From assembly GCA_963575745.1 (NCBI GenBank), contig CAUYUJ010000177.1, positions 1-64,000 of the forward strand: DNA of 64,000 nt, given 5' to 3'. Of this stretch, positions 628 through 52,891 are shown piece after piece (position 1 is the first letter of the stretch; the number at the start of each line of letters is the position of its first letter). The notes beneath the pieces are model-generated. The model was not told where the DNA came from and did no database searches. It saw only the letters and a program-made list of their open reading frames with translations. A program made the translations under genes and the position numbers. The DNA comes from Prorocentrum cordatum (Eukaryota).

Positions 628-3300
628 CTACATCAACTTATCTTCAGCCTGTAATGTTTCGAGCGTGCTCTGTAAAATGCGCATGCGCACAGCAACGGCC
701 ATGCTCTCGGCCCTATGTACCCGTGTGCGCGTGCTCTCAGTTAAACGTGCGATCTGCGCTCCAGCTGCGGCACATTCATCTGCGACAGTGTTGCCTATGA
801 TGATAAGCCTGGGAGCGTGCTCACCTACCATGTGCTCAGCGCCTAGGTGGGAATTAATGGACAAGACAGTGCAATGCAAATCAGGCTTGCGAGCAATTTC
901 CTGCCCAATCTTCCACCAGAGGTCGGCGTCGGCCCCCGACGGCGATAGCCACCGAGATTCGTACCAACCAGAGCACACAGTGGAATTATCCGTAGTGTAT
1001 ATAATGTGCCCCTCACTCTCACGTGTGCATACCCACAAGCAATACAGCCCACCGCGCACAACTGTCTGCCGCGCGCCTGGGAGAGCTGACCAAATGCCGA
1101 GTGAAATGTGCATGTCATCGTCGAGCGACCGAAAGAGAGCGACTCCGAGGCCGACGCGCCGAAGGCGAGGGTGGTGCATTTCCTTGCCTCCGCTGGCGTC
1201 GCCGAACAAGTACAACGGCTGCTCGGCGTAGCCGCGTTTGAAACCTGTGAAACCTGATCCTTCTGAAACATGCCACTGCTCAACATCTGGTGGATCCTCG
1301 ACGGCGACCCACGACGATGGCAGTATCCCTCTCGTCCAGAAACACTCCTCTGACTCCCACTGGGTGTATGCCTTGGCGACATACTGCTCACTTATCTGGT
1401 ACACTGAACTGGCTGACCGTGATTCGCAACCCCATATCCGGTGGAAATTGGTCTCGGGGACGAGGCGGCACCTGGGGCATTTCACGTCGAGCTCCTGCTT
1501 GCAGCGTGTCTGCCTCCTGGTCCTGGGCCAAGACGCTCCTGTCGCTGCTGCCAGCATCAGACCTGCTAGACGAGGTCCGCCTGGGCCCTCCTCCAGTTGC
1601 CGTAGTAACTGTCTGTAGGAATGATTGCATATACCTCTTTTCATGCCACTTCCGCTAAAGTGTGTGGAGGCGTCCCCCCATAACTTGGCCTGGATGGAGG
1701 ATTGAAATTCATGAAAGAGATTCTTGGGTACGTCGATGGCACTGCAACCCGTCAAGGCCTGATCATTGAAATTCCAGCTGCTCGTACCGTCGGGGATGTC
1801 CCAAGAGTTCGCTGCTGCTGGTTGCCACCCTGCATTCAGCAAGTACGCGATGACCGCAGCTTGAGGTCCTTGGATTCTTCGGCACCTCTGGGCCGCGGGG
1901 AGGGTAGTGAACTCCTGCACCAGACCAGCCCAGGTACGGCCCACTGCGATACGCACCTGTGGTTCTGACACCCATGTGGCAAGCCACATCCTCAGAGTGT
2001 CGAGGGGCAGGCGGTACGCGGGGTCCCGCTGCGGCGCCTTGAGGTCCAGTAGCGTGGTGACGCACCTGCCAGTGAGCCTCGGCGCGGAGGCGTTGGCAAG
2101 CTGGCGTCGGACGGATGTCATCTGGCCTCCGAACACGCCATGGAGCTGGTGCGCGTACAGCCCCGCTGGGGCCGCCCCTTGTTGCTCGAGTCGGCTGGTG
2201 ACTCGATACCTCCGTAGTGTCCGAGCGTATCTGGTGATCTTGGCTGACATCGCGTGATGCTTAGTCGCTCTCGATCGCCTCGTAGCCCGTGCTTGCCTGC
2301 GTCCGCCGCTCAAGTCGGCGCCGAGGTAGGGGGCCTGACTGGCGTACTTCAACTTATACCCCTGCGCAGCAACTCGGCGTGTGATGATGCGAGCATCCTC
2401 GATGTGGCTGCAGATCACGACGCTCTTAGGAGAGATCTTCAACCCTGCAGCCTCCATGATCTGGCATGTGTCGATAAGACATCGGATCACCTGTTTACGC
2501 ATACTGATTCTTGAGCCTCGGGCCACTTGTGATAGGTCATCCACCCACAAACGATGCGACATATTCACATGCGCCGTGGTGATCTTGGACATGATGAAGT
2601 GCGTGGCGCATTTCCCGAACCTCGTGCCCCCCCTCAGCCCCTGCACAATGGATCGTGTGGGGCAGAAGGGGGGGGCCGTATGCTCCTGACTGTCGAACAC
2701 ATCGTACTGCCATACATTGCTGAAGCTCGAGGCCTAGCATCTCCGCAGGAAATTCGAGTCGTAAAGCTGCGGCTCCGATGCGACACCAACCGACACTATC
2801 ATACCTCTGCGCAATATCACACAAACCGTGTCCGTGCGCAACTCCGAGACGACCTGCAAGTTCCTCGTCGACAGCACGAATCAATACTTCTCGCACAGCG
2901 GAGTTGCCGCGTACAGCAGCATCCCAGTGTGCCTCACACTCATCCGTCCACGTCTTGACATAGCCCTCTCGGGCCTGCGACCACACTCTGCCGAAATGCG
3001 ATAGGAGACCGATGACTCGGTCTCCGCTGATTTATTTGGCAGTAAAGTGCCAATGGTGATCAGCACTTGATGTGGCCACACCTGATGATATTCACAAAGG
3101 GATAGCAATGCTGCCAATTCGGCCAGAGCGATATCTGGCAGACGATCCACGTCTAGAGAACATAGCCGATCAACACCCATCGCCGAAGAGGGTTTCATTC
3201 TTCTGAGCGCAGCTCTGAGGTCAGCGACCTCGATGGGCGGCAATGTCTCGTCCTGGACGCGGCGCCTGATGTCGCCGAAGAGGTCTAGCAACTGCTGATG
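628..3300 (-). pseudogene. LINE ORF2: reverse transcriptase, zinc finger and RNase H (split over 3 frames)
   Basis: RT motifs: AMGVD, LCDIAQRYDSV, IVQGLRGG, LWVDDL, GLKISPKS, YLGADL. Zinc finger: KCPRC..ETNFHRIWGC. RNase H: LFGDASGG...LPGARQTVVRGGL...YTTDNSTV...DADLW...INSH...GNTVADECAAAG. Covered by ORFs 628-2700, 2537-2986 and 2881-3693. Confidence 0.92.
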
Positions 3301-4454
3301 GTCCTGCCCTTGTGGCGCCCGCAGCGCCTGCCATTGCTGGGTTTTAAAATCGAGCACATCACGTGGGTGGATCAGCGTACGAGTCCCCCCTTCGACTGTG
3401 TCGGAGGCCAAGGGCGTGGAGCGAATAGCCTTGTGCAGGGCGCCAACCGCAGGTGCGGTCTCTGCCCAGCTTCGGAATGATACGATTGATTGGTGAATAG
3501 CTCTCTGCTGACTGCGTCTGGCTAACTTTTCTGCAAGCTCACAACCAGCAGCCAACTCTTCCTCAGGAGGAGACCCCGGTACGACCCCTCGCAGGAACAG
3601 CTTCCACTGCACCCAGGTACAAGGATGACGCCTCCGAAGGACTCGATGTGCCTCCTCTGGCGTACTGCTTCGAAGTGCGTCGATGGCCTGCACGAGTAGC
3701 CGCTGCTGCTTACCTCCGTTGTCTCGCCGACGATGCTGGAGGAGTGATGCAAGTGCGGTGGCCAGTCTCGTCCACCACCCGCTGACTTTGTCACGGAGGG
3801 GCTCTAACCTCTATGATGTAGACTGCTGCACGGTGCCGATGCGGAAATTCGCAGCTTGCCCACGCGACAGGATGGGAACGGACTGTTGGTGATGGGCGTA
3901 GATGGCCTCCTCCACCGTGCGGACCCAGCTACAATAAAGTGAACTGATGTGAGGTGCTGCTGGATCCTGAGAACCAATCCAAAATGCAACGGACTTGGCA
4001 ACAGCATCAGCAGGCAGGCAAGCGGCACTCGGGGTGAACCCGACGTTTTTCCTGGCCTGCACCCACGTTTCGCTATTAACTTGAAACTCGGCCTCGACTT
4101 CTACAGGGGACCCTGAGCTCACCGACTGAGACAGCACCTCCGAATTGTGAGACTTGTGGACCTCACCTTCAACTGAGCTGGGTGTTAAACTCGGGGGGCG
4201 CTCGGTCTCCTTGGGCTGGGCCTGTGTGGTACATTCGACTGGACCTGATTCGACTGAAACAGGGGGCATAGAGGTAGCAACACACGGAGCTGCGGGCGGC
4301 GCAGCTGATGTGAAGTTGTTCTCGTCCGCCCACGGGTCGAACTCGGAGATGCTGTCCCAGTCGGTGAGGCGGTGGCCACAGGAGACCTCCGAGGCCTTGT
4401 CGGTCTCGTCGTCTGTGCCCTCCTGGCTCTCGTCACCTGCCTGCCGACGGAACT

Positions 4455-5370
4455 CTAAACTATCTCCAAACCACTCCCGAATTTTCTGATTGCGCTTCTC
4501 ACGTGCATTCTGCCTAGCTCCATCTTGATTTTATTGACACTAGACTTGGAACCTGCAACGGCCATATTCTCGGGCCGACTGGTTCGAGGGAGCCTCGGAG
4601 GGAGCTCAAGAAACCTCGTGAAAAGCTGGCTACCTGAGGACACTAGCTCTATGCACAGCCCAATATGTGGCCTCCATGGGACGGTGCAAACAGCCGTGAC
4701 AGATCTGATGTATGCTTTGGCCGCAGGACACACCACAAGGTAATCGAGGTGGGACGGTTTCTTGTCACCTCCTGGCGTGCACGTGAACTCAGCATCACTG
4801 CACAGGATCTGTCCTCCCGTGCGCTCCAAAAAAAACAGTTTTTGCGAGGGCGCTGGGGGTGAACTTCCAATCGCCAGCAACGATCCAGGGCAGCTGGAGA
4901 GAGAGGCTAAAAGACTAGCGAGTTTGCGAAATCGTGAAACATTCTGACCTCGGAACCCTATGGACGAGTGCCCATAGAAGATGATATATCTGTATATATA
5001 TATATGACAGAGAAACCCTTCATGTGCAAAATCACTGGCAGAACTCCGTCGAATGCCGAGCCGCGATCTGCTCGCAGCCCGCGTGCAGCCTTCGCTGCAT
5101 CTAGCACCTGGACTGGCAAGTGATTCTTGGCGTAGAAAAACTCTCCGCCTTCGCAGCTCTGGGCAGAGTCTCTGGCTTTGGGCCTAGCAGGATTGCACAA
5201 AAGCTTACGAGAACATTCGCGTGCTTTCTTGCGCCATCCTACTACAGCTCCAGGAAGTGTATGTGTTTCGCAGATGGACATGTAATCGAACGAGCTGCGC
5301 TGCAAGTGACGGATGTGCCCCCAAGCCTTATCGCCCATGCAGCTCACGTTCGCGAAGAAAATGTATGAGG
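4455..5370 (-). pseudogene. LINE ORF2 N-terminal apurinic-like (APE/EEP) endonuclease, frameshifted
   Basis: IFFANV at the start, ICETH (catalytic Glu motif), FTC..SHLDYLVV and VPWRPHIGLCI motifs, spread over ORFs 4958-5347 and 4455-4880. Confidence 0.85.
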
Positions 5371-5563
5371 AGGTAGACGTAGGTGTGGCCTCAGGATGAG
5401 TCGCTGCTGAGGACTCGCTGCTGCCAGTACCCGAAGTGGCTGCAGTGGATGTCGCCGTGGACGCACTGCAGCCAGTGCCCGATGTAGTTCCAGTACTCGA
5501 TGTACTGGTGCTCCCCGATGGCGACGTCGGAGTCGCCGTTGTACTTGACTCTGCAGACCCTAG

Positions 5564-6637
5564 TCATGAACTCGCCCTCGGAGTTCCAGCAACTGGGTCA
5601 TCGTCACGTGCTTGCTGAACCGCATCCTTGTCGCGAGCAACGGCCTCCTTCGCCTCGAAACGCGCCTTGGACAGCCGCTCGGCCTCGCGCTTGAGGGCCG
5701 CCTCCTCCTCGGCGGACGGGGCTGCGGCCTCAGCGCTGCTGGCCGTGGCACCTGGTGCCGACTGGCCCTCGACTGGAGCGGCGTCACCGCCTTCGCCGCT
5801 GCGCCTCTTCTTGGTCATCAGCTCCTGCACGGCCTTCTGCTCGCTCTTGACGCGGTCCACGAACTCACTCCATTGCGCATTCTTCTCCTTGATGGTGTTG
5901 CGGTAACCCTCGAGCTCCTCTTTGAGAGCCCTCAACTTGGCCTTCTCGCCTTCATCACAGTCCCACTCCTCGAAGGACGCGAACAACTCTTCGTTCATGT
6001 TGGGCCCGAAACATGTGGGCTCGGTGTCGTCACCCTTGGCCGTAGGTCGGAAACCTTCAGCCTTGGCGAGGGCGGCAGTGGCTGCGCGCTTGGTGCTCTC
6101 GCACTTGGCGACCTCCAGCGCCGCCTCCTGCACCTTCTTCTCCGCTGTTGCCAGCTGTCGCCGCAGGCGGATCACCTGCTCGACGAGCTGGCCGTGCCTG
6201 TTGACCGCCCCTTTGAGCGCTCCATCAGCCCGCTTGACCTGGTCAACGTCGGAGGCCGTCTGGGACGTCATGCTGCTGCTGATGCGCTGCCTCTGCGCCT
6301 TCAGCACGGCGGTGAGCTCGGCGTCGGCGCTCATGGCCATCGCCTGGTCGAGCATGGCTTCGACCTCCTGCTGCTGCTTGCTCTTGCTCCCGCCTTTGCT
6401 CCCACGTCGAGACCTGCGTGGTGTGCTGGGAGCATCTTCATCATCGAAATGAACACGTCGATCCTGACTGGGGGACCGAGACCGCCCTGACCTTGGGACG
6501 AAAATGCGAACTTCGTGCGTGCAGGTTGCACACCGATTGTTGTTCAGCAGGAGGTGATCGTTGTACTCGCATGTCTGGCAATGACTACATCTGGACCACG
6601 CCCGATGTGGTCGGCTGGTCTGCTGTGGCTTTCCCAT
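5564..6637 (-). CDS. LINE ORF1 (gag-like): N-terminal CxxC..CxxC zinc finger, RS-rich linker, coiled coil
   Basis: Intact 357-aa ATG-started ORF (WSRCSHCQTCEY...CATC) with a long heptad-rich segment, directly upstream of the APE domain. Confidence 0.8.
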   Translation of the reverse strand: MGKPQQTSRPHRAWSRCSHCQTCEYNDHLLLNNNRCATCTHEVRIFVPRSGRSRSPSQDRRVHFDDEDAPSTPRRSRRGSKGGSKSKQQQEVEAMLDQAMAMSADAELTAVLKAQRQRISSSMTSQTASDVDQVKRADGALKGAVNRHGQLVEQVIRLRRQLATAEKKVQEAALEVAKCESTKRAATAALAKAEGFRPTAKGDDTEPTCFGPNMNEELFASFEEWDCDEGEKAKLRALKEELEGYRNTIKEKNAQWSEFVDRVKSEQKAVQELMTKKRRSGEGGDAAPVEGQSAPGATASSAEAAAPSAEEEAALKREAERLSKARFEAKEAVARDKDAVQQARDDDPVAGTPRASS

Positions 6638-6787
6638 GGCTGTAATGAATTTATTCCAGCTCTCGTTATCTCAGACTGAATGTGTGGGGGGGGGGGGAAG
6701 GACAGATCTGAGATATTCCTCAAACGCCTCGTGAAGGCACTGGGATCGGACAAGAACGCGGGCCTTCGTCGGGGCGAAGGTCTTGCG

Positions 6788-7427: not shown

Positions 7428-9008
7428 ACTCCTGATGTTCCAACCTACTTTAGCCTTGATCACCAGAAAGAGTTTCGGGCACCAGGAAAGTACCGAAACT
7501 GGAGGGCTGTCACGCGTCGGGCCTCGGGGGGCGATCTTCGGCCAACGCCTCGCCAGCGTGTCGGGCAGACACTGCCTCGATGTTTCTCGGGGTGCTCGAA
7601 ACCGTTTCTGGGACGTGATCCTCCCCCTCCTCCTCCTCCTCCTCCTCCTCCTCCTCCTCCTCCTCCTCCTCTGGGAACAACATCACCCTGGACCCAGAGA
7701 TCCGACGCTCCAAAACAACTCAGGCTGGCGGTCTCTGGCCAGCCTCGGCCCCCGGGGGGGCCCTCGCCGGGCCTCGGGACCGTCCAAGAGAAGCGAGTCG
7801 GGGCGGAGCGCCGGCCCTCCTCCTCCTCGTCCTCGTCCTCCTCGTCCTCCTCGTCCTCCTCGTCCTCCTCGTCTTTCTCCTCCTCCTCCTCCTCCTCCTC
7901 CTCCTCCTCCTCCCCAGGGAAGGCCCGGTCAGGGCGGAGCGCCGGCCCAGGGGGGCGGTTCTGACCTCCGGGGCCCACGCATCGAAAAACCTGGAGCAGC
8001 CGGATGTCTGGGGGCATTCCATCAGGCAGTGGCGAGGCATTTTGGTTTGCCTCTAGGTCCTCCGAAGCATGTTCTGCGGCCTTTTTTGTGGCTTGCGCGA
8101 AATGGTGTTAGACCATTTCTGGCTGAGACCGTTTAGGTTCAATCCATCGGATTTTTGTTCCAAGGGTATTTTCTGTTGTGATTCGAGAAATCTGTTGTTC
8201 TACGAACATGTCGTGGCAGGCATTCAGGAATGCCCAGTCGGTCGGTGCCTTGACATTCTAAGCCTCCCAGATGGGGTCCGAGCAGATCGGGTCGAAGGAT
8301 CACGCCGTACCGCCGATGCATCGCCGATGCGGCTCGATGTGGAGCTCGAATTTCCACGCCAACGTCGCCGAGGCGTCGCCGCCGCCGCCGATGTATCGCC
8401 GATGCTCTGCCGAGGCGTCGGCGATACATCGGCGACGCATTGCGATGCGGTGCGAGCCTCCGACGGGCCCCACCCGGGAAGCCTCTAGACATGCCCGCGC
8501 CGGGGCAAGAATCGCGGCGGGAGGTCTCTTGGGTCGCGTTCGGCCTCCGAGGGGGCCCTCGCCAGGCCCCAGTCCGTCAAGACACGACGCGGGATGCCAA
8601 GCGGGCCCCTGGGAGGGGGTCAGGACTTCTGGAGGCCCCGCGCTTCTTGAAAGCGTGAGGGCGTCGCAAGTTTGAGTCCTGCGAGGTGGGCGACGGCGTC
8701 TGTCGGGTCGGCGTGGGGCAATAGGGGGCCGTCGAGCATCGAGGCTTTCTCGGGCACTGCTGTCGGTCCTCGCCGGTCTTCCAGCCTCGGGGGGTGCTCT
8801 CCAGCAGCTGCGCCTCGCCGAGAGCGTCTCGGTGGCGCCCGGGTCGTCCCGCACAGCCGCCGCAGATAGGGAAAGCGGGGGGTGCAGAAGCTGCTGCATG
8901 CAGCGAGCCTCGGCCCCGCCGCCGGACGCTTTCATCGACGCCTTGGCGCCTCCCGGCACCAGGAGGCGCCGGGAAAACCTGCGACATCAGCTGATTCGCT
9001 AGCGTTAA

Positions 9009-9168
9009 GTCGGGCCTGTCCCTCTACAGGTGGAATATTCAAAGATAGTCAAGAAATGGTCTGGGGACGATATTTCGACCATCTTTGAGAGCATTTTTGG
9101 AGGTGTTTTTTTGACTCTTTTCTTAAAAGTTGTCGTCCAAAATCCGCCTGTCGGGGGCACACGCCCGA
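9009..9168. mobile_element. MITE family B (TIR gtcggg..tgtccc..acagg), AT-rich core
   Basis: Ends are gtcgggcctgtccctctacaggtgga and tccgcctgtcgggggcacacgcccgac, flanked by ttaa and gtaa. Confidence 0.7.
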
Positions 9169-9322
9169 CGTAACGCCAGCGCCATTCCTTTGCGAATATC
9201 CCCCCCGGTCGTCCGACTCGCGGCGGCGACGGGGACGACGACGACGCGGCGGACGGCGGCGTTCGGCGGACGGCTGCGGCGGTGCGGCGGATGGCGGACG
9301 GCGACGGCGACAGCGTGGTGTC

Positions 9323-9323: not shown

Positions 9324-9415
<92 letters not shown>

Positions 9416-9910
9416 GCATCATCATCATCATCATCGTCAGCATCATCGTCAGCATCAGCATCATCATCATCATCAACATCAACATCATCATCATCATCAT
9501 CATCAGCATCATCGTCAGCATCATCATCATCATCACCATCGTCATCATCATCATCAGCATCAGCATCAGCATCAGCATCATCATCATCATCATCATCATC
9601 ATCTTTGCATCATCATCAGCATCATCATCTCGTCATCCTCATCCTCCTCATCATCATCCTCATTCTCATCCTCATCCTCATCCTCCTCCTCATCATCATC
9701 ATCACCGTCATCGTCACCGTCATCGTAATCGTCATCATCATAACCATTATCATCATCATCCTCATCCTCATTATCATCCTCATCATCGTCCTCCTCTACA
9801 TCATCATCATCATCACCATCATCATCACCATTATCATGATTATCATCATCATGATCATGGTCACCATCATCGCCGTCACCCACCGCCACCTTTGGTCTCA
9901 TCGTCGTCAT
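9323..9910. repeat. (CAT)n microsatellite, degenerating 3'-ward
   Basis: Direct reading of the sequence. Confidence 0.97.
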
Positions 9911-9914
9911 TACC

Positions 9915-9948
9915 CCGTAGCCAATGTTTGAGGCCATCTATGCGCAAG
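9915..9948 (+). other. Degenerate DinoSL relics upstream of Derlin
   Basis: CCGTAGCCA at 9915-9923 matches the SL 5' part. GCCATCTATGCGCAAG at 9933-9948 matches GCCATTTTGGCTCAAG at 12/16. Confidence 0.55.
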
Positions 9949-10057
9949 CCCTGCTCGCCGCAATGCTTGGCAATCTGGATCCACGCGGTGCCCGGTTAGC
10001 GATTTGCACGGAGGCTCGAGTGGCAGGCGTGACCACGTCTTTCGTCATAAACTGTTC

Positions 10058-10285
10058 ATGATGGTCTTCTCCATCGTGGGAACTCTGCCACCAGTTACGC
10101 GATGTTTGACCGTCGCGGCGGTCACGTTTATGCTACTGTGCTCTCTGGACGTGATACACCCTTACACCCTCGGCATGAACTGGCGTCTGGTCCTGTACGA
10201 GTGGCAGCTGTGGCGGCTAGCCACGAGCTTCCTCTATTTCGGGAATTTCGGACTGCAGTTTTTCGTAAACGTTTACATCCTGGTC
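10058..10285 (+). CDS. DER1: Derlin (Der1-like ERAD protein) exon 1
   Basis: MMVFSIVGTLPPVTR...WQLWRLATSFLYFGNFGLQFFVNVYILV contains the PPVTR and QxWRLxTxFLxFG Derlin signatures. The 3' boundary is set by homology (+/-2 nt). Confidence 0.93.
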
Positions 10286-10882
10286 ATCCCATGGCGTTGC
10301 CGCGGACATCCGCCCACGTACCTTCGGAACGGCACGGCTGCAGTGCGAGGTCTGGCGGCGGCCTGGCACGGCTGCTGCGATACCTCTCAGAGGGGCCTTT
10401 CTCGGGTCCTCGTGCGGACCTCTCTCGGGAGCCTCTCGGGGGGGCCCCTTGGAGCTCTTGGGGGCGCCGTTGGGGGAGCGCGGAGCTGTCTTGCTGGTTC
10501 TTGGGGCCGTCTTGCTGGTGGTGTGCCTTGGGGTCTACGAGCCTCTCGGGGCTGTCTTGGGCGGGTCTTGGGTCCTCTTGGGGCTGTCTTGGAGGCCTTG
10601 CGCCGTCCTGGGGCCGCCTTGGTGGCCTCTGGGGCGTCGTCCTGGAGCCTCGATGTGCCTCCAGGGCGCCGCCCCGAGCAGTCCAAAGGTCCTCCAAGGG
10701 GCCAAGCGAAGGCCGTCTTGAGCCCTCTTGGGCGACAAATGAAAACCGCCCGAACGCCGATAGGTTTCTCCAGGGGGCTCGCCCGGCTCGAGGCGCAGCT
10801 GAGGTCGGTGAGCCAGGCTGCGGGGGCGCAATTGGTTCGGGCAGTCATATGAGCTTGGGCACTGCGGTACCGCGTGCGGCGG

Positions 10883-10984
10883 ATGTATTGTTCCCGGCTG
10901 GAGGACGTCGCGTTTCAGGGCAGGTCCGTGGACTTTTTGTGGATGCTGGTGTCTGGCGGAGTGATGTTCCTTCTCCTGGCATCT
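10883..10984 (+). CDS. DER1: Derlin exon 2
   Basis: MYCSRLEDVAFQGRSVDFLWMLVSGGVMFLLLAS carries the YCxxLE..F...DFxxM motif. It is not in the ORF track. The 3' end could alternatively be 10978. Confidence 0.9.
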
Positions 10985-11762
10985 ATCAAGAAGACCCCAC
11001 CAGCTACATGCAGTGCCGTTTTTAACACGTGATCCGCGTGCGGATCATGTATGAAAGATGCAGGGATCCAGTACTAAAACACGATGAGCTCATGCATACA
11101 TTTATTCATGAATTCATCATGTATGACAAAACCAATATTTTGAATATCCTATGTGTTAAACGCTGCCCTGTACGCATCCTTCTGTCGGAGGCCCGCGCCG
11201 ATTCCCCTCCGCCCGCCCCCCCGTCCACGGCACGCGGAGCGCGCCACGGGCCGCGCTGCGGGCGCCGCCGGGTGGGCGGGCAGGGGAAAGTCCGGCCCTG
11301 GCCCGGGAGATCCGCTCGGGCCTCCTCCTCCTCCTCCTCCTCCTCCCTCCTGACTCCTCCTCCTCCTCCCCTTCCTCCTGCCTCCCCTCCTCTCCTCTCC
11401 CTCCCCCTCCTCTCCTCCTCCTCCTCCTCCTCCTCCTCCTCCTCCTCCTCCTCCCTCGGGCCTCCCCCGGGCCTCTGCCCTCCCAGAGCGCCGCCCACGC
11501 CTCCCTGCAGGGGCTCGAGGCGGGGCCCCTGGGCTTCTCCCCCAAGGTCAGGAGGAAGAGAAACACGCAGACACAGTTCATCGGCGATCCCCCAGAAAGT
11601 GTGGGCAAACATGGGCAGGCGGGGGGAAGACAGGCCCTGAAAACATGGGAAAACCTCAGCGGAACGATTTGATATATGTGTGCACTTCTTTGTGTGTCCT
11701 GGGGCCCCTTCACGTTTGTGTTTAATGCTTAGGCAGCTGATCGGTCTTCCGCTGTCCTTCGG

Positions 11763-11891
11763 GTGCAGAAGCACACGATCTCCTTCGTCGGCGGCTCGCT
11801 GATCGACATCATGATCTACGTGCTGGGGCGCCGCATGCACAGGGCCCGCTTCCGCGTGGGGCTCTTCCTGATCCGGGGGCCCTACCTTCCC
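11763..11891 (+). CDS. DER1: Derlin exon 3
   Basis: VQKHTISFVGGSLIDIMIYVLGRRMHRARFRVGLFLIRGPYLP carries the YVxxRR...PYLP motif. The 5' end could alternatively be 11769. Confidence 0.9.
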
Positions 11892-12291
11892 GGAGGGCTC
11901 CGGGAGGGACTGAGGCAGCCCCAGACGTCCGACGCTGGGTTGTCTCAGCAGCGTGGACCCCAGAGGTCAGGAGCGACAGAAGGACGTACATGTACATGAA
12001 TCCACGCTGGTTTCGAGAGTTCGCATTGCGCGAATGTTCGTATCGCGCGGCAGGTCTCGCGGGTCAAGGGGCCGTGTTCATGTACATAGCTGGGCGCGTA
12101 CGTCCTTTGTGTGCTCCCTAAGAGGTTTGGGGGCCCCTTCCCCAAGGGTGCCCTCGAGGGCGCGAAGCTGTTCGCGCCTCGCGCTTCGCGGTTCGGCTCC
12201 GACGCCTCCTCCTCCGCTTCCCTGGAGGGCGGCGCGGGGGCGCGAAGCTCTTTCGCGCAGCGCGCGGCGCGAGCCGCGAAGCTGGGCTTAT

Positions 12292-12474
12292 GTCGGGCGT
12301 GTCCCCTTACAGGGGTGATTTTCGACGAAAGATAAGATTACCCAAACAATACCCCAAGAAGGTCAAAAAAGACTAACAAAAATAGTCCCCAGACTATTTT
12401 AGACTATTTTTTGATTATTTTTGGGGTATGTTTTATTCTTCGTCGAAATCCCCCTGCAGGGGGACAGGCCCGAC
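12292..12474. mobile_element. MITE family B copy inside Derlin intron 3
   Basis: Ends are gtcgggcgtgtccccttacagggg and cccctgcagggggacaggcccgac, flanked by ttat and ttaa. A third, half copy starts at ~12544. Confidence 0.75.
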
Positions 12475-12784
12475 TTAAAGCTAGGCGCCCCTGTAGAGGT
12501 CTGGACCCCTTCCCTGGGACCAGTTTCTCATCCCGAGCTTGAAGTCGGGTGTGTCCCCCTACAGGTGAACTGTTCAACACTAGTTGGGAAATAGTCCGGT
12601 GACGCTGTTTTGGCTGCTTTGAGGCATCTTTCGATTATGTTTGAGTATCTTGTGAGTATTGTTCGGGGAGGAGGAGGAGGAGGAGGAGGAGGAGGAGGAG
12701 GAGGAGGAGGAGGAGGAGGAGGAGGAGGGGAGGAGGAGGAGGCCTTCTCTGCCTTGGCCCCCTCTGGAGCCCCCGGCCCATCCG

Positions 12785-12868
12785 TGCGCGCTGATACTCC
12801 TGTCGGTGGCGAGACATCCGCAGAGGATCCTGGACAGGCTGATCGGCTTCTTCGTCGGGCACGTCTAT
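12785..12868 (+). CDS. DER1: Derlin exon 4
   Basis: CALILLSVARHPQRILDRLIGFFVGHVY carries the D.xG..xGHxY motif. Confidence 0.88.
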
Positions 12869-14203
12869 CTGGCCGCCTGCGGCAAGTCCCGCCGCCGCTG
12901 TCATCGCAGCACGACGGAGGGTAGGGGTCGGAGGAGGACGAGCAGCGGGAGGAGGAGATGGAGGAGGAGGAGGAGGAGGAGGAGGAGGAGGAGGAGGAGG
13001 AGGCTCTCGGAGGAACAGCAGCAGGATGAGGATCAGGAAGAGCAGGAGTGAGAAGACTGCGCGCGACCTGGAACCGGGCGTTTGGCCACCGCTCTGAGGA
13101 GGAGGAGGAGGAGGAGGAGGAGGAGGGGATGGAGGAGATGGAGAAGTAGGAGGAGGAGGAGGAGGCGGCGGAGGAGCAGTGTAAACCCAAGACGCATCAG
13201 CGATGTTACGAGCAAACCTCCTTCCAAATTCCCCCTTCACAGGTCCCTACAAGAGCATCTGTTCGTGGTGGGACGCGTCCCGTTGGAAGACTGCAGTTTG
13301 TGAGTCCTCAATCCTGCCAAACCGCAATTTCTGGGATGCGCGTGACTGTTGCGTCCTGGTATTCCTGAGTGGTGCCAGAACGACATTGCTGGATTTCAAC
13401 TCCGCGAATCCAGATAACTGTTGCGTCTTGGCAGTCCTAGGTCGTGCCAGAATTTCAGCCATACGAATCCTTGAGCCTGCTGCACACCTTCACTACGAAT
13501 GTGCGCGGCGCCCAGGCCAGAGCCACCTTTTGAAAACCAGCCGCCGCCCTTGAGGTTGTTGCAGACTTTTACGACGAGGGCGATAAGCACACTATGAAAA
13601 GGAGCCGCCGTCTATTTTCGATACCATGGCGTATTCCAAACGTCAGGGCCCTCAATGGTGAGGAAGTCTCCAGCGACACGCTGGGCCAGTCCTGCGGACA
13701 CATTTCTGGGGGGGCGACAGGGATAAGCTACAGGCCTCGGAACAAATTAGCGAACACTCATGCCACATTCATCCGTCAACGCTTCCCCCTCCCCCCAATA
13801 TTCAAAGTTGGCGGTGGGTCTGATGAGATGCACTTGGGCCGCAGTGCCCCCGCGCGTGCCAACATTGAGTTTGGGGGGGAGGGGGAGTGTTCAGCAATTG
13901 TTTCCCTCTACCGTATTTCAAGGGGAAGGGATGGAGGTGGAGGGGGATAAAGGTTCAATGACAATGGAGGGAGGGGAGGGGGAGGTCCGGGCAGAACAGG
14001 GAGGACGGACGGCGGACAATGTGGGCTGTGACACCTATGAGATGACTGGTGCTGGAGGAGGAGGCGGAGGAGAAAGAGGAGGAGGGGGAGGAAGAGGGGA
14101 GAAGGAGGATCAGCCAGAAGAGGAGGAGGAGGATGAGGAGAAGGAGGAGGAGGAGCAGGACATTCCAACACGCTCCTACGTGTCAGGGGACACCGTGACG
14201 GAT

Positions 14204-14305
14204 TATTTCTTCGAAGACATATACCCCATGATGCCGACTGCCAACGGGTTTCGACTTTTTCTGACGCCGAGAGCGCTCAAGGTAATCTGTGGGCAGCGGG
14301 ATTGA
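14204..14305 (+). CDS. DER1: Derlin exon 5 (terminal, TGA stop)
   Basis: YFFEDIYPMMPTANGFRLFLTPRALKVICGQRD* carries the YFxEDxYP...TP motif. Confidence 0.9.
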   Translation, partial: YFFEDIYPMMPTANGFRLFLTPRALKVICGQRD

Positions 14306-15833
14306 CCTGTTTGCGTGGGCCATGTCTCACGACGCCTCCACGCCACTCTCTCTCCAGCCGTGGGGGAGGGGGGGCGTGAGGGAGGAGGGGTGGAGGAGGA
14401 GGAGGAGGAGGAGGAGGAGGAGGAGGGTAAACCCGAGATGCATCGACGATGCTGCAGTGCACTTGGTCGAAGTCCCCTTCTCATGCGTCCCGATGAGAGG
14501 GAGGCGCCCCCCCTTGAAAGACCAGCATCCTCTCGGGCCCGGTATTTGGGCGAGAGCCCCGCCTCGTACAGGAGCTGCTTCGCCTCCTCCTCCTCCTCCT
14601 ACTTCTCCATCTCCTCCATCTCCTCCTCCTTCTCCTCCTCCTCCTCCTCCTCCTCCTCCTCCTCCTCCTCCTCACACAGGCGCTGCTTTGCATCCTCCTC
14701 CTCCTCTTCCTCTTGGGGAGCGCGGCCGCGTAGCGGACTGAGAGACATCTGGGGCCCTGGCGGTCGTCAGCGTGCTGACGGTCGCCAGGGCCTCTTTCAT
14801 GACGTCCCCTCCTCCTCCTCCATCTCCTCCTCCTCATCACCTCCTCCTCCGTCTCCTCCGCCTCCTCCTCCTCCTCCTCCTCCTCCTCCTCCTCCTGGTC
14901 CGTGGATCCAGAGGGCGCGCGGGCAAAACAACGTGTAAAAAGTTGGGGTGGTGCGCCAGATGCGTCCCATATGCAGTCAAGAGCAGTGTTCCAGACGCGC
15001 AATGCAAATTATGCCATGGGATAGCGCAAACATGTGTCACACATGAGAACCTTCCATTGGAATTACTTTTTTTGCCCATTGTTGTCTTGGTCGGTCTCTG
15101 CGGCGGCGGTGAGCCCAATTGTTCGGATTGCCGTCGACCGCAGAAACCAGTTGTCTTACTAAATCATGGCCTGACCGCGCGGCCATCTTATCGTACAGGT
15201 CGGTATGTACTTCGTCTACAATGCCAGATCGAGGTTTGGAGTCTGCCCGTCCCAAGGCAGTCTCGTGAGATATATGCGAGTAATGTGCATGAGGGATGCC
15301 CATGATTACAGTCGGGTCGCTGAGGAAGGAACCCTTTTCGTTGGGGAGAGGCTCAGTGTTATTCCTCAATTGTTGTGCAGTGTTCCTTAGGTTTTCGATG
15401 GGACATCGAAATTTAAGTCATGGAAGAAATGGGCCTCGTTCCTTCTTTGGGGCTACTTCGGTCAATGCCCCCATTCTATTTCGCAAACGTGTGCCGTGGA
15501 ACTCGCCCGACTTAAGTTTGTCCGCTCTGGGCAGCAACAGAGGGTCTAGCGAATACAAACTTGGCCACCACACAACTTGAATATACATGCGCACACATAC
15601 ACATACATATAGACGTACACATACAACGGCGCACCGGGTCCGGGCGCCCGGGGCCGGCGCCGCTACCGCAAATGTGGGCCCCGGGGCCCTCGGGGAGCCC
15701 CGGGGCCTCACAGAAGGCCGCCAGAAGGCGCCAAGGAGGCCCCAAGAGGCTCCAGAACAGACCCGGGACGCCCGAAGGTTGCTCCCAGACGCCCAACTTG
15801 AACATACATGCGCACACATACACATACATATCA

Positions 15834-15864
<31 letters not shown>

Positions 15865-17379
15865 CAAGACTGCAGTGGCGCTTCGCGCCATGCACCTTGG
15901 TCCTTGAAATTTGGTATGCAGGCGGACTAACGGGAAGGTCAAGCCGACAATTTAGCGATAACTCCTTTTCCGGCATCGCCGCTATAATAATGTTATTCGT
16001 TATCCTTCCTCCATGCATCTTATTCCTACTTTTCGCCATGCCCTGCGCATTCTCCCCATCCTCCTCAGCTCTTTTTGCGGAGGCTCCTCCTTGGAGAGCC
16101 TCTGGGGGCCTCATGGGCGTGTTCTGGAAGCTTTCTTAAGGCCTTCTGGAGGCCTCCTGGGCGTGTTCTGGTGGGTTCTGGGGGCTTGTCGGGCCACCCT
16201 GCCTCCAACCGCGTTCTCCCTGAACGACCGGGTCACGATTTGGAATGCTTCGGAGGGTGTCTTAGGGCCATCTTGGGCCGCCATGGGGCTCCCTGGAGGC
16301 CGTCTTGGACCCCTGTTGTGCCGTTTTGGGGCTCTCCTGGACTGCCTGGAAGCCCTTTCGGATGGTTGTGGGGTCGTGGGGTGGAGGGAGGCGGGGGGAT
16401 GGTGGGTGTGGGTGTTGGGGGGGGGTTTTGTAGTGTGTGTTTGTGTTTTGTTTTTTCTTTTTTTTTTTTTTTTTCAGTACTTTTTTTTTTTTTTTTTTTA
16501 TGTTTTTTTTTATTTTTTCTTTTTTTTTTTTCTTTTCGGATGGTTGTGGTGCGATTTTGGAGCCTCCCAGGCGGCTTAGGACGCCCAGAAGACCGCCGTC
16601 TTGGAGCGTCGGGAAGCCGAAAAGAGGAGAACCCCAAAATAAGCCACAAACCAACAAAATCAACGATTTTCGCCTCGTGGGGCCTTCTTGGGAGTGCTCT
16701 TGGAGGCCTCTTGGGACGTTTCGGGACGATCTTTGGGGGTATGACGGCTTCTTGGGGGTCGTCGTCGACCGTATTGGGGCTCTCTGGGGTCGTTTCGGGA
16801 GCGCGCCACGTCCTGCGAGGCCCTGGGGGCCGCTTCGAGGCCCGTCCGGAGGGTCCCTAAGCCCCAGATCGCGGTAGTCCGGTTTTGGGGGGGGGGGCGG
16901 ACGGGTTCTCCCCCCGCCCGAGCGTGCAGAAATATAGAAAGAGGAATCCATTTATATATATATATATACATGTATATATATATATATATATATGACACAT
17001 GCACATTCTATTAGTAAGCAGCCCCCCCCCCCGCCGGCCTGGGCCGCCGGCCCCGCAGCCATCGGCGGACAGCCGGCCGCCGGTGCCGCGCCCCCTGTCG
17101 CTCCCCGGAGGCGCTCTTCTGGAGAGGCCACGAGGGCGCCAAGACGATGCCGACCGGGTTTCAAGAGGCCCCTATGCGGCGAAGATAGGGCGACGAGATC
17201 TATGCATATCCACTGCTCCTGGCCAGGCCAATCCTGGGCCCAGGAGCGGTGTATACGCCCTCCTGGCCTGGCCAGGGAGGCATATACACAGCTCCTGGGC
17301 CCAGGATGGGCCTGGCCAGGAGCAGTGGATATGTATAGATCTCGTCGCCCTACAAGAAGGTCCCGAGCTGCCCAATACG

Positions 17380-18480
17380 GCCTAGGAGGATTCCCAGGGC
17401 TCTCCCAAGAGGGGCCCAGGAGGCCCAGATCGTCTCATTCCTGTGGGACAGACGTGCAGTTTTGGCACGTGCGACTTGTCAGCTCTCGCGGCTGTGAAGT
17501 CGGTCCAAGACTTCCCCAAGACTTCCCCAAGGCAGCCCAAGACGTTCCCAGGAGGCCCCCGGGCCAGCCCAGCAGGCCGCCAAGACGGCCCGAGGGCCGC
17601 CTGAGACGCCGAGTTGGCCCCAAGACGGCGCCCAACACGGCCCAAGAAGGTTCCGAGTCGCCCAAGACTGCCCAAGATGGCCCCAAGAAGGTCCAAGAAG
17701 GCTCCAAACCCCAGGGGGTTCGAGTCAGGATTGCGCAACATCTTGCAGCTCTCAGCCTCTAGGATTCGCCTTGCAGGGCAATGCTGTTCTCAAGAGAGCA
17801 AAGCCCGCCTGCCTGTTCTTCGGGGCCTCCCCGCTCGATCACTCGGGGCCGCCGGCTGCCCGCCGGGATGTCCACCGACAGTTTCCTGTCCAAAAAAAAA
17901 GTCCAAAAAGGCTCAGAGGCGTCCCAAGAGGCCTCCAAGAGCACTCCCAGGAGGGCCCCAAGAAGCCACAGTTGTTGAATGCATACGGGGAAAGGTACAT
18001 TTCATCAAATGCGACTTTTCGGCCTTCACGGCTTTGAAGACGGTCCGAAAGGCTCCCCAGACTTGCCCAAAAGAGCCAAAGACACTCCCAAGAGGCCCTC
18101 ACGACAGCCCAAGAGGGGGCCAAGACGGCCCGAGGGCTGCCCAAGACGGCCGAAGAAGGCCCGAGTCGCCCAAGATTGCCCAAGATGGCCCCAAGAAGGT
18201 CCAAGAAGTCTCCGAGACGTCCTAAGAGTGCTCCAAGAGCACTCCCAAGAGGATCCCAAGAAACTTGATTCGTTACATTCCTGCTGGCGAAGCGTACATT
18301 TTTAGCATCTACGGTTTGGGGGCCTTCACGGCTTCGAAGACGGTCCGAGAGGCCCCCAATATTTCCCCAAGCGAACTGAAAACCCTCCCAAGTGGCCCCA
18401 AAGATAGCCCAAAACGACGCCAAGACGGCCCAAGGGCCGACTGAGACGGCTCCAGCAGGGGTCCAAAAGGGGAACTCCGA
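17380..18480. repeat. CCAAGA/GGCCC-rich dispersed repeat family
   Basis: Degenerate ggcccaaga/cccaagacg subunits. The same family occurs at ~10390-10790 (-), 16080-16870 (-), 23160-23990, 26500-27100, 38860-39880, 41550-42240 (-) and in the duplicate. Confidence 0.85.
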
Positions 18481-19314
18481 CTCGACAGTTGCAGCCTTCT
18501 GCCCAAAGAACCTCCCAGGAGGACACAGATGAGAAAACAGACGGCAGGAAACGACATATGCGTGATACAGATAATATGGAGGAAGTGGAGAAGAAGGACG
18601 AGGGGGGACGGAGAAGGAAACACACCACTCCTTGCCCGTGCCTCCCACCTGGACTATCCTCCTCCACAATGTTGAACTCTATTCCCCTTCTCCTCCAAAC
18701 TCCATCGGTCCTCCTCTTCGTCTTCTTCCTTCCTGCTGTCACAACGTTTGTGCTTATGCCACCGATAACTTCTGACGGTTCATCTTCGGCCGTCGTCTTC
18801 CTCTTCAATCCCCACTGACCCTCCGTCATCCTTCTCATCAATCTTCAAAGTATATCTTGAGCGTTCCTCCTCTAGACCTCTCTCTAAACCTCCTCCTGGC
18901 CGTTCAACAAAAATCCGATTTCAGGTCGCCCCTGGGACGTCGTCGCCGTCGTCACCTTTCGCCGGCCTTTCGCCGATTTTTTCTCGCAAAATTCCGATCC
19001 CCGGGGACGTCGTCCGGAATTGGAGGAAGTGGATGAGAGAGGTGTAGGAAAAGAAGAGGGAAGGGGAGGAGGAGGGGCAAAAAGAGGAGGAGGAGGAGGA
19101 AGTTCAATATAGCTCTGGAGGCTACAGCACACCGGCTCCAAACACTGACCATTGGTTTGACATCTAAAGCCGATGCCGCCCACGAGGCTTCTAGGACGCA
19201 TATTCAGATATGTATACATATACTTATGCACATACATAAAACCTATATACATATACGACCACCCTTCGGGTGATAAGGAGGTTGTGTGGGGGGGGAGAGG
19301 GGGGAACCGACATC

Positions 19315-20020
19315 TGACTCAATCGATCTCACTATCGATCTCACTCAACGGAATACCACGGGACACCACGGGACACCACGGGACACTTGTCGATCTCGCT
19401 ATCGATTTCACTATCGATCTCACTCAACGGGACATCACGGGACACCACGGGCCACCACGGGACACCACGGGACACCGCGGAACACTTCTCGATCTCACTA
19501 TCGGTCTCACGATCGATCTCACTATCAATCTCACTCAGCGGGACACCATAGGACACCACCGGACACCACGGGACACTTCGGGAAATCACAGCGATCTCAC
19601 TATCGATCTCACTATCGATCTCACTCAGCGGAACACCACGGGACACCAAGGGACATCACGGAACGCCTGTCGATCTCAGTATCGATCTCACTTTTTGGGA
19701 CACCACGGGACACCACGGGACACCACGGGACACCGCGGGCACCACATCGATCTCAGTATCGATCTCAGTATCGATCTCACTTTTTGGGACACCACGGGAC
19801 ACGACGGGACACAACGGGACACCTGTCGATCTCACTATCGATCTCACTATCGATCTCACTTTTTGGGACACCACGGGACACCACGGGACAGCACCACATC
19901 GATCTCACTATCGATTTCACTATCGATCTCACTATCGATCTCACTATCGATCTCACTCAACGGGAAACCACGGGACACCATGGGACACCACGGGACACCA
20001 CGGGACACCAGCGGGACACT
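19315..20020 (+). repeat. Composite minisatellite of 10-bp GGGACACCAC and 12-bp ATCGATCTCACT blocks
   Basis: Alternating runs of the two units. Duplicated at 61783-62490. Confidence 0.93.
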
Positions 20021-20309
20021 GCGCGGCACCGGCCGCCGGAGGACCAACATTTGGTCCGGCCGCGGCCCAGCCACAGGAGGATGTCGGGACACCAGCAGGA
20101 CACCGGCGGGGCACCTCGCGGCACCGGCCGCCGGAGGAGCAACTTTTGGTCTGGCCGCGGCCCAGCCACAGGAGGATTTCCTCTCGCCCGCCCACGCAGC
20201 TTCGCCTCGCACGCACGCACGGCACGCACGACACGAACCCGAAACCGAAATCGATTTCCCGGTAAGGGGGGTCTCCGTTTCACGTCGGACTCCCCCCCCC
20301 ACTTCCGAC

Positions 20310-20935
20310 CACATTTGCATACATATAACGATAACTATACATATACACATACACCTATTCATATACATTTACGGTTACATTTAAATATACATATCACTAT
20401 ACTTATACATTACATTATACATCTATATATCTATGTATATGTATATACATATAGATATGCATGCGCATACGCATAAACATATACCTGTACGCATACATAT
20501 TTACACACACATATTTATGCATACACAAAGACATGCGAGTGTACATGTTTCGGCACACGTACATATACCTATGCAGCTACATGTACATCTAAACATACAT
20601 TTACATAGACACACACATACATACACATGTACATTTATATTATACATTATACGTCATACATATACATGAACACGTACATCTACACATACTTTTACATGTA
20701 CAACTAAGCATACGTATACATATAGATACATATTCACGCATATACATATGCATGCACACATACACATGCACATACACGTACACATGCATATACACATGTG
20801 CGTATACTTATATTGACGCGTTTGCATGCACATATACAATTATACATTTACCTGCATATGAGTACATACACACGTATTCACATAGATATACATATATTTA
20901 CATATACATCTGCCTATACATACATACATATATAC
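20310..20935. repeat. Degenerate (TA/CA)n alternating purine-pyrimidine tract
   Basis: Direct reading of the sequence. Duplicated at ~62785-63405. Confidence 0.9.
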
Positions 20936-21032
20936 TGCGACGACGACTTTTTGGTCCATTCTTAGGTCGCTGTGGGATGGCCTCGAGAGGTTTTGGAAGT
21001 CACTTGGGCCGTTGGCGTAAGCACTGGTCACA

Positions 21033-22478
21033 AATTAGCCTGGCGAAGGACCCAACCATATGCAGTTGAGAGTACCGCAATTGTGAATCTCTTCTTCGGT
21101 GGCGCTCCCTATGGGGCCACGAGCCGTATGAGGGGTGTGCCGAAATGCGTGGCAGTGTACACAACACGAACGAAGAACGAAGACGATAGGTTCGAATATG
21201 AAAGCTTGAGCGCGTGCGAGTCGGATCGCGAGCGAGTCTGATTATGAATGAATCTGCGCGCGATTGATTCTATTCGCATGAATGCGTGCATGGATACGCC
21301 CAGTGTAAATGTATGTATACTACTGTGAACAGTTTGGGTCTGCGTGACTCTCGGTACTCGTGACTCTGAGCGTCGCCTCTGCAGGGGGCTTCCCTGGGAA
21401 CCCCGACGGCAGCGCCCGCGCGCCGCAACGCCCATGTCGGCACGCCACACACCTGGTGTGCGGGACGCATGCGGACGGCAGCACTGGGGCCTTCGGTGGA
21501 GCTCCCTGTGGGGGCCACGAAACGTGTGAGGGGTGTGCCGAAATGGGTGTGCGGGACGCATGCGGACGGCAGCCATGGGGCCTTCGGTGGAGCTCCCTGT
21601 GGGGCCACGAAACGTGTGAGGGGTGTGTCCTGGCCGAAAATGATGTCGGGACGCCAATGCGGGACGGCAGTACCACTGGGGCTTCGGTGGGAGCTCCCTG
21701 TGGGGCCACGAAACGTGTGAGTGGTGTGGCGAATGGGTGTGCGGGACGCATGGCGTACGGCACCATGGGGCCGTCGGTGGACTCCCTATGGGGCCACGAA
21801 ACGTGGGATGTGTTGTGCCGAAATGGTGTCGGGACGCATCGTAAGGCAGCCACTGGGGCCTTCGGTGGAGCTCCCTGTGGGCCACGAAACGTGTGAGGGG
21901 TGTGCCGAAATGGGTTTGTGCGACGCCGCATGCGGGCACACCCACTGGGACCTTCGGCGGAGCTCCCTATGGGGCCACGAAACGTGTGAGGGGTGTGCCG
22001 AAAAGGGTGTGCGGGACGCATGCGGGCACACCCACTGGGACCTTCGGTGGAGCTCCCTATGGGGCCACGAAACGTGTGAAGGGTTTGCCGAAATGGGTGT
22101 GCGGGACGCATGCGGGCACACCCACTGGGACCTTCGGTGGAGCTCCCTATGGGGCAACGAAACGTGTGAGGGGTGTGCCGAATTGGGCGTGCGGGACGCA
22201 TGCCGGCACACCCACTGGGACCTTCGGCGGAGCTCCCTATGGGGCCACGAAACGTGTGAGGGGTGTGCCGAAATGGGTGTGCGGGACGCAATGCGGACGG
22301 TAAGCCATGGGGGCTCCTCCCCCCCCCCCCCTTCGGTGGAAGTCCTCCCTATGGGGCCACGAAACCGTGTGAGGGGTGTGCCAAGTGGTGATGACGATGA
22401 CGAATGACGACGCTGACAATGACGATGAATGATTATGAATGATGATGCTGATATGATGATGAATGATGATGATGATGA

Positions 22479-27464: not shown

Positions 27465-28432
<968 letters not shown>

Positions 28433-43620: not shown

Positions 43621-43739
43621 AGAAGGTCAGCGACCTGTACCCGACAGTGCACCTCGTCCCCGCACTGGCGTGGCCCCGGCTGCTTGGGCGCAGGGGCCGA
43701 TCTTAGGGGGGGTCGACGTCAGCGATCCCGACTTGGAGC

Positions 43740-49331: not shown

Positions 49332-49544
49332 TTAGTCTCGGGAGGGACTCGCGCGAGCTCGCACGGGCGACGCAGCCTCCTGGAAGCAGCCGCGCGGGAG
49401 GGGGGGCGGAGACAAGCGCCCTGCGGTGCCCCGCCGAGGCTCCGTCCGCCGGCGCCGTCCCTGCGGAGAAGCCGCTCTGGAAGATCCAGCGGGCGCACGG
49501 CGGCCACCGCACTTCCGTTCTTCCCCCTCTCTGTATGTTTCTTT

Positions 49545-52869: not shown

Positions 52870-52891
52870 TCCGTAGCCGTTTGGGTTCAAG
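52870..52891 (+). other. Full-length DinoSL relic
   Basis: TCCGTAGCCGTTTGGGTTCAAG matches DCCGTAGCCATTTTGGCTCAAG at 19/22, directly after (CCT)n(CAT)n. Confidence 0.8.

Follow-up and report, generated by a model that had tools for sequence, protein, structure and literature searches.

How can a gene be split by four long stretches of DNA whose borders carry none of the usual splice signals, and its coding pieces still join into a complete protein? This question is raised by a gene for a Derlin, a protein of endoplasmic reticulum quality control, which occupies positions 10058-14305 on the forward (+) strand of a 64,000-nucleotide (nt) stretch of DNA, here called the window (contig CAUYUJ010000177.1 of the Prorocentrum cordatum assembly GCA_963575745.1). 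We propose that its four interruptions, i1 to i4, are removed from the mRNA by a non-canonical route and precisely at the colinear borders, i.e. where the flanking exons join in line with a homologous Derlin, and we give this reading a probability of about 0.40. A retroposed origin of the gene, a transposon origin of the interruptions, continued selection and precise removal from RNA are all matters that we infer from the DNA, the removal most of all.

A complete Derlin in five pieces

A previous sequence-only reading of the locus had described five stop-free exons encoding a complete Derlin of about 214 amino acids, and this description holds: the pieces 10058-10285, 10883-10984, 11763-11887, 12781-12866 and 14202-14305 (all +), joined and translated by a script, gave 645 nt, 214 codons and no internal stop. 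Exon 1 (10058-10285; 76 codons, opening with ATG ATG) alone matched the Pfam DER1 profile (PF04511) with an E-value of 5.1e-17 and 62.9 bits, against a cut-off of 26.6, over profile positions 1-66 of 191; it shares 45-46% identity with two Derlins and is also matched by yeast Der1 (6vjz_C, E 4.7e-4). Exon 2 (10883-10984; 34 codons), recovered as well by tblastn from the proteins P0001 and P0002, matched profile positions 69-97 with an E-value of 8.1e-5 and 23.1 bits, which is under the 26.6 cut-off. Since exon 1 covers the profile up to position 66 and exon 2 resumes at position 69, the i1 junction falls between the two and leaves zero space for added residues.

Exons 3 (11763-11887) and 4 (12781-12866) are in frame in the joined model, and exon 5 (14202-14305) ends with the stop codon TGA at 14303-14305; searched singly against Pfam, these three matched no family, being too short to score alone. 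When the 246-amino-acid Derlin P0002 was used as a tblastn query, it recovered exon 1, exon 2, exon 3 (11772-11891, 12 of 41 residues identical) and exon 5 (14204-14287, 13 of 28), plus a second copy of exon 4 located elsewhere in the window. A script alignment of the colinear model with P0002, the one full-length homologue used, scored 332 over 201 columns, of which 73 were identical and 5 contained gaps. The gene is a Derlin (Der1-like, PF04511), colinear over its full length with P0002, and its core coding sequence shows a strong bias of guanine plus cytosine (GC) content by codon position (0.55/0.38/0.78). A conserved membrane protein of this kind serves as a residue-exact readout of where the interruptions would have to be removed.

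Borders of the interruptions and their canonical alternatives

The interruptions span 10286-10882 (i1, 597 nt), 10985-11762 (i2, 778 nt), 11888-12780 (i3, 893 nt) and 12867-14201 (i4, 1335 nt), all on the + strand. Short redundancies had been pointed out at their junctions, and they were found as AT at i1, TCC at i3 and AT at i4; i2 has none. We listed every sliding position that gives the same mRNA, which amounts to 11 registers: AT..GG, TC..GA and CC..AT for i1, AT..GG only for i2, TC..CA, CC..AT, CC..TC and CG..CC for i3, and AT..GG, TC..GA and CT..AT for i4. An AG end occurs in none of the 11, and neither does a GT, GC or GA start, just as had been claimed for the colinear junctions; the AT..GG register is present at i1, i2 and i4, in agreement with the suggestion that all three can be read as ATC...CGG. 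For i2, colinearity does not settle where the borders lie, as this interruption sits in a loop of variable length.

Two other kinds of intron border were considered and rejected. U12-type AT-AC introns have an ATATCC-like 5' site and an AC or AG 3' end; the 5' octamers at i1, i2 and i4 are ATCCCATG, ATCAAGAA and ATCTGGCC, the last two bases are GG, and this type fails for all three. IRE1-type loop sites, judged by eye against the consensus CNG/NNGN, fit the 3' borders of i1 and i2, and neither any 5' border nor the 3' border of i4. A scan of 9800-14700 against Rfam returned nine matches at E-values up to 1, none of which reached its gathering score.

Canonical sites are available close to the borders. 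The AG dinucleotides named previously (10853, 12769 and 14186) do belong to in-frame, stop-free alternatives: at i1, a GT donor after 10295 with AG at 10852-10853 adds 13 amino acids; at i3, GA after 11903 with AG at 12768-12769 adds 9; and at i4, GC after 12881 with a CAG/G acceptor and exon start at 14187 adds 10. The earlier count of about 13, 9 and 9 added residues was therefore right for i1 and i3 and one too low for i4. The in-frame GC-AG option that had been raised as a caveat for i2 (10979-11768; GC after 10978, exon start 11769) also exists, is stop-free and removes four amino acids.

The interruptions might accordingly be spliced out by the spliceosome at such cryptic sites, producing an altered Derlin of about 242-246 amino acids, which we regard as unlikely. 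Splicing of transposon insertions through cryptic sites is a familiar outcome, the alternatives are in frame and stop-free at all four interruptions, and that of i4 reads G/GC...CAG/G, with a diverged patch (described below) starting 7 nt past its acceptor. Donors of the GT, GC and GA types with AG acceptors are, moreover, the usage given for dinoflagellate introns in two studies (10.1101/2020.10.14.339549; PMC7557087).

Other observations speak against these sites. With canonical sites at i1, i3 and i4, the score against P0002 falls from 332 to 279 and the gap columns rise from 5 to 37, and the cost of the canonical alternatives amounts to 53-58 alignment points and 32-34 gap columns overall. 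The 13, 9 and 10 added residues, several of them charged, interrupt the motifs YILV-MYC, PYLP-C and GHVY-YF, which, going by the topology of Derlins, we take to be transmembrane helices. Their 32 codons lack coding periodicity, having a flat GC profile (0.78/0.69/0.81, n=32), and GC at the second position is above the core value of 0.38 by about 3.5 standard errors (arithmetic from the counts); because of this flat profile and the high second-position GC, the added codons do not look like long-standing coding sequence. Only the i4 acceptor is followed by G (AG/G), whereas the other three are followed by C or A and lack the downstream G usual in dinoflagellate introns.

A compromise between the two would be that i2, and perhaps i4, are ordinary GC-AG introns and the others non-canonical, or that AT..GG borders are made canonical by editing of the pre-mRNA (A to G at +1, G to A at -2). 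The GC-AG option at i2 is indeed mild, scoring 327 against 332 for the colinear junction, AT..GG is the register-0 form of i1, i2 and i4, and mRNA editing in dinoflagellates is reported in 10.1101/2022.07.25.501386. Possible editing, though, concerns just 2-4% of Amoebophrya intron borders in the figures given by PMC7789003; we consider such mixed or edited sites very improbable.

Marks of a probable insertion and of a probable retroposed origin

In the preferred reading, precise removal at the colinear borders, the interruptions are insertions, and their ends carry marks that agree with this. Shifted by one base, i1 (10287-10883), i2 (10986-11763) and i4 (12868-14202) share the form host A / TC...CGGR / T host, ending in CGGA, CGGG and CGGA, respectively; all three lie in sense orientation and lack a target duplication. 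At i2, the reading frame survives this shift, a Val codon becoming Met. The three agree at 7 of 20 junction columns, a degree of agreement reached in 0.31% of 200,000 simulated pseudo-intron triplets with register freedom, and AT accounts for 34 of the 644 dinucleotides of the coding sequence.

Helitrons, as characterised in PMC4778049, start with 5'-TC, end with CTRR-3', have a palindrome about 10 nt from the 3' end, insert between A and T without target duplication and show an AT-rich 3' flank; other Helitron variants use a TT target, according to PMC8788227, and TC also serves as a target of variants. Like Helitrons, i1, i2 and i4 stand between A and T, begin with TC, have neither target duplication nor terminal inverted repeats (TIRs) and show AT-rich 3' flanks. 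Interruption i3, in a frame-restoring register, reads T/.../T and so resembles the variants of PMC8788227, and all four stretches then begin with TC. Unlike in Helitrons, the CTRR end is absent, the 3' termini of i1 to i4 being CGGA, CGGG, CCCA and CGGA. Folding of the last 45 nt gave small stems no better than those of shuffles, with z-scores of -0.6 to -1.1 and 29-48 of 200 shuffles folding equally well. Within the window, further copies of any interruption terminus were found only in a segmental duplicate, and no Rep/helicase frame was present among the 136 open frames scanned. Judged from these borders, the junction signature of i1, i2 and i4 recalls that of rolling-circle (Helitron)-like elements. 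Indels between that duplicate and its counterpart were considered as fresh insertions of the same class and rejected: they comprise microsatellite changes and a T-rich insert bordered by a 17-nt direct repeat, and so differ in kind.

Interruption i3 is built differently. It carries the 3-nt direct repeat TCC at its borders and TIR arms (about 11890-11918 and 12749-12776) that agree in 22 of 29 columns. Its end-to-end duplex has a predicted energy of -50.7 kcal/mol, compared with -39.6 +/- 4.9 in shuffles (7 of 300 as good, z -2.2), and it is the only interruption with significant end pairing. Introner elements of Amoebophrya have an 8-20-nt inverted repeat joining their ends and a 3-5-nt direct repeat at the borders, as outlined in PMC7789003. 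The i3 sequence shares this architecture of direct and inverted repeats, its inverted repeats joining both ends, unlike i1, i2 and i4, which show no significant end pairing and have a direct repeat of 2 nt (i1, i4) or none (i2).

The non-conventional introns of Euglena follow the code 5'-N3CDG...CH'GN5-6/R, in which D pairs with H' (Nomura et al. 2025, PMC12501133); they have base-paired ends, and their borders, like those seen here, can slide through short direct repeats. In register 0, i3 has paired ends and fits the code with CGG at +4 and CCG at -8 (N3/N5); the next exon base is T, not a purine. For i1, i2 and i4 the code was tried and rejected, as it fits in none of their eight registers, and the host has relicts of the dinoflagellate spliced leader rather than euglenid features.

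Internally, the interruptions are mosaics of the genome's own repeats, with 59-69% GC; three of them include runs of (GGA)n or (CCT)n. Interruption i1 contains copies of a GGGGCCTCTTG-type minisatellite that is also present at 39.2-41.9 kb. In i2, a dispersed repeat (11548-11712), with copies at 26790-26950, 49172-49332 and, on the minus strand, 47685-47524, stops about 47 nt short of the 3' border. A long hairpin resembling a miniature inverted-repeat transposable element (MITE) is nested in i3 (12282-12484; partial copy at 8999-9180), and a smaller MITE-like hairpin lies in i4 (13780-13890). Both hairpins gave weak matches to plant microRNA precursors, on both strands and far below gathering scores.

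The age of the interruptions relative to the gene may be judged from the sequence upstream of it. In dinoflagellates, a relict leader is the mark of a gene whose spliced, leader-capped mRNA returned to the genome as cDNA. A decayed double relict of the dinoflagellate spliced leader (dinoSL) lies at 9915-9948 (+) and ends 109 nt before the ATG: aligned end to end with the 36-nt relict dinoSL of PMC7557087, it is identical at 25 of 36 columns, and shuffling of the 178 nt upstream gave an equally good alignment in 3 of 2000 trials. Its first 9 nt match the relict exactly and form the sole such 9-mer in the window. Judging from this degenerate relict, the Derlin gene is probably, not certainly, a recycled (retroposed) cDNA; a relict leader upstream implies that the gene was most likely intron-less at insertion, and hence that all four interruptions came later. 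At least four further relict-leader-like stretches are present in the window, at 52871-52891 (+), 8109-8142 (+), 43597-43622 (+) and 6808-6788 (-), the first of them matching the spliced leader at 18 of 21 positions (0 of 100 shuffles as good). The relict leaders of themselves point to a dinoflagellate as the host.

Precise removal or a dead copy, and the surroundings of the gene

The course of events that we propose is as follows. The Derlin gene would have arisen as a retroposed, spliced-leader "recycled" cDNA in a GC-rich and repeat-rich core dinoflagellate genome, and four pieces of repeat-laden DNA, each 0.6-1.3 kb long, would have entered it later. Interruptions i1, i2 and i4 would have come in at A/T sites, with the Helitron-like signature, and i3 as a TIR element flanked by its 3-nt repeat. 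Selection would have continued to act on the gene, the insertions being cut from the transcript exactly at their borders, as introns without GT/GC/GA...AG.

Colinearity alone does not decide for this course, because whatever inserts into an uninterrupted coding sequence will have colinear flanks. The gene may instead be a dead copy, i.e. a Derlin that was retroposed or duplicated, then disrupted by four transposon insertions, and that gives no working mRNA, its exons being left intact by recency or by gene conversion from an expressed paralogue. An A/T site, a TC start and a missing target duplication are the signature of a transposon and not of a splice site, and splice signals are absent at all the colinear borders, as neutral insertions predict. 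The window itself, with at least five relict leaders and with neighbouring open frames that are broken, would suit such an origin.

A truncated second copy of the gene fits it as well. This copy (55503-57094, +) starts within the last part of i3, continues through exon 4 and i4 into a frameshifted stretch resembling exon 5, and lacks exons 1-3. It belongs to a segmental duplicate of about 8.5 kb, 42.8 kb away (12709-21154 against 55503-63622), of near 100% identity apart from some patches and indels; in the blastn comparison, 12709-16371 aligned with 55503-59160. Because the duplicate begins inside the (GGA)n run of i3, the only coding parts of the second copy are exon 4 and the exon-5-like stretch, with i4 between them. 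Exon 4 has no difference from 55576-55661 over 86 nt, and i4 is 99.9% identical to 55662-56992, all seven differences lying in 14194-14201. Over exon 5 there are 85 matches, 11 mismatches and 14 gap columns. These differences are part of a diverged patch of about 350 nt (14194-14545 against 56989-57380), with roughly 10% substitutions and 12% gap columns, mostly indels of 1-2 nt, which extends over exon 5 and the sequence flanking it on the 3' side; GTGAGTTGTTTCAG stands before TTCGAAGAC in the second copy. The patch may reflect real divergence, exchange with a third locus or a local assembly fault. Complete identity over exon 4 and nearly all of i4 beside such a patch is what patchwise exchange between copies would produce.

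Several observations are harder to reconcile with a dead copy. Four large insertions lie in 645 nt, yet there is no stop or frameshift, and it would be odd for neutral DNA of this length to receive all four before one small lesion. The three A/T-type insertions are all in sense orientation, for which the chance under neutrality is 1 in 4. The intact frame and the strong codon-position bias in GC contrast with the decay of the leader (25/36) and of the i3 TIR (22/29), a combination that fits neutrality poorly, unless the elements were degenerate at insertion, and that argues for continued selection and hence for removal from the mRNA. This indirect evidence speaks for removal from the mRNA rather than for a dead copy, which we hold to be somewhat unlikely, and it does not separate precise removal from removal at canonical sites.

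A number of points weigh against precise removal at the colinear borders. The junction signature was picked post hoc and the i2 border was chosen among several in-frame options, so that its true P exceeds 0.003; end pairing is non-significant at i1, i2 and i4 (fractions of shuffles as good: 0.12, 0.13 and 0.78), and their 3' hairpins do not exceed shuffles. Each of the four interruptions has a canonical alternative that is in frame and stop-free, the CAG/G of i4 being a good dinoflagellate acceptor. The diverged patch starts at 14194, which is 7 nt past the canonical i4 acceptor and 8 nt before the colinear exon 5, and it would favour the canonical site if it marks the last exon. The elements may have been degenerate when they landed. 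The locus lies in a region of active duplication, patchwise exchange and rampant retroposition, with a truncated duplicate of the same gene, and dead copies must consequently be common there. We know of no mechanism for removing such AG-less insertions. A literature search found no description of AG-less introns in core dinoflagellates, and the published dinoflagellate pipelines, as set out in 10.1101/2022.07.25.501386 and PMC7557087, admit only GT/GC/GA-AG introns.

Searches for relatives and transcripts brought up no transcript of this gene. Exon 1 gave 430 pattern matches and no relative among metagenome contigs, and an exact 30-mer of exon 4 had no match in metagenome data; among proteins of near length exon 1 found no candidate, and among longer ones two distant Derlins only, out of 13 candidates. 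Fourteen sequencing runs from six studies hold 0.06-0.17 of the sampled words, and the exons with parts of the untranslated regions would give about 0.15. We counted this as no evidence; an identical paralogue or the parent of the retrocopy would give the same share.

Among known systems, precisely removed interruptions would recall the introns of Amoebophrya. RNA-seq supports introns without conserved end dinucleotides in strains A25 and A120, where about 66% of splice sites are classed as "other" (PMC7789003, Table 1). The shared features are a dinoflagellate lineage, the missing end dinucleotides, short direct repeats over the borders and a proposed transposon-like origin. The same table lists GC contents of 47.8, 51.2 and 55.9% for three Amoebophrya genomes, whose introns have 44-49% GC and which contain 227-248 genes per Mb; by GC content and gene density, strains A25, A120 and AT5 were rejected as the source of the window. 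According to that paper, the A25 and A120 introns are mostly 120-240 nt long, with 44-47% GC in compact genomes of 48-51% GC, whereas the interruptions described here measure 597-1335 nt and have 59-69% GC, in a repeat-rich window.

Introner-like elements of core dinoflagellates, as described by Roy et al. (10.1101/2020.10.14.339549), are likewise transposon insertions that become introns, with several element classes per genome. They differ in obtaining GH...AG from the element end together with a 4-8-nt target duplication; here there is no GH...AG, and the duplication is absent (i1, i2, i4) or 3 nt long (i3). Identically repeated intron boundaries in dinoflagellates always contain GG, usually AGG, at both sites, as stated by Mendez et al. 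2015 (PMC5032977). The present junctions resemble these in having a 2-3-nt repeat at both borders that is retained once in the mRNA (AT, TCC, AT), and depart from them in that none of the three repeats contains GG. In the annotation of Fugacium kawagutii, 9.32% of splice sites are "other" (PMC7789003, Table 1).

What would be new here, as read from the DNA, are the retroposed origin, the shared A/TC...CGGR/T form and the hairpin-ended i3, AG-less introns as such being documented already in Amoebophrya and euglenids. A more specific proposal, which we advance tentatively and with more doubt than hope, is that a core dinoflagellate cuts transposon-derived insertions from mRNA exactly at their borders, one class (exon-A/UC...CGGR/U-exon) stemming from Helitron-like elements and another being hairpin-ended. 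If true, a second, non-canonical pathway of intron removal would be widespread in dinoflagellates and would have been missed by annotation restricted to G[TCA]-AG; such genes would be systematically mis-annotated or dropped, as the models allow just GT/GC/GA-AG. Should the colinear junctions be used, AG-less introns would extend beyond Amoebophrya and euglenids to large, free-living dinoflagellate genomes. The locus would also offer a clean case for intron birth, with an intron-less start implied by the relict leader and insertion marks still visible at each interruption. If the copy is dead or cryptic sites are used, the locus is an ordinary product of retroposition and transposon load.

The other relict leaders of the window have surroundings of their own. 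The stretch at 52871-52891, which adjoins the truncated Derlin copy, is directly followed by an ATG and then by GC-rich sequence of 2.6 kb, in which two long open frames lie in different reading frames and have no Pfam match. Downstream of the relict at 6808-6788, a minus-strand chain (631-6670) comprises open frames of 701, 309, 239, 242, 201 and 368 amino acids, with one in-frame stop, frame changes and no Pfam family at cut-off; it may be a decayed retrocopy encoding some large protein, or a gene that is itself interrupted. At the two relict-leader loci inspected besides that of the Derlin, the frames that follow are broken by stops or frame changes, a contrast that speaks for a live Derlin gene. 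Beyond the Derlin, no Pfam domain reached its cut-off in the 136 frames scanned out of 195 stop-to-stop frames of at least 110 amino acids, matches to DUF4757 and REV being at chance level; outside the scanned set were frames of the Derlin region, those over 16400-16560, part of the tandem-array frames and, beyond 55.9 kb, the second copy.

Within the duplicated segment, the first copy alone carries a 162-nt insert (16372-16533), which has a T-rich 3' end, is flanked by 17-nt direct repeats and looks like a retroposed element on the opposite strand. The window as a whole has about 59% GC, close to the 59.7% reported for Prorocentrum cordatum, and is full of satellites and microsatellites. A 90-nt satellite at 24105-25806 (18.9 copies, 95% matches) has a reverse-complement array of 9.2 copies at 21455-22296, some 2 kb apart from it. 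Large arrays elsewhere in the window comprise (CAT)n (9324-9871), (GTAGTA)n (27464-28432), (GGT)n (40043-40936) and a repeat of 433 nt (34140-35635).

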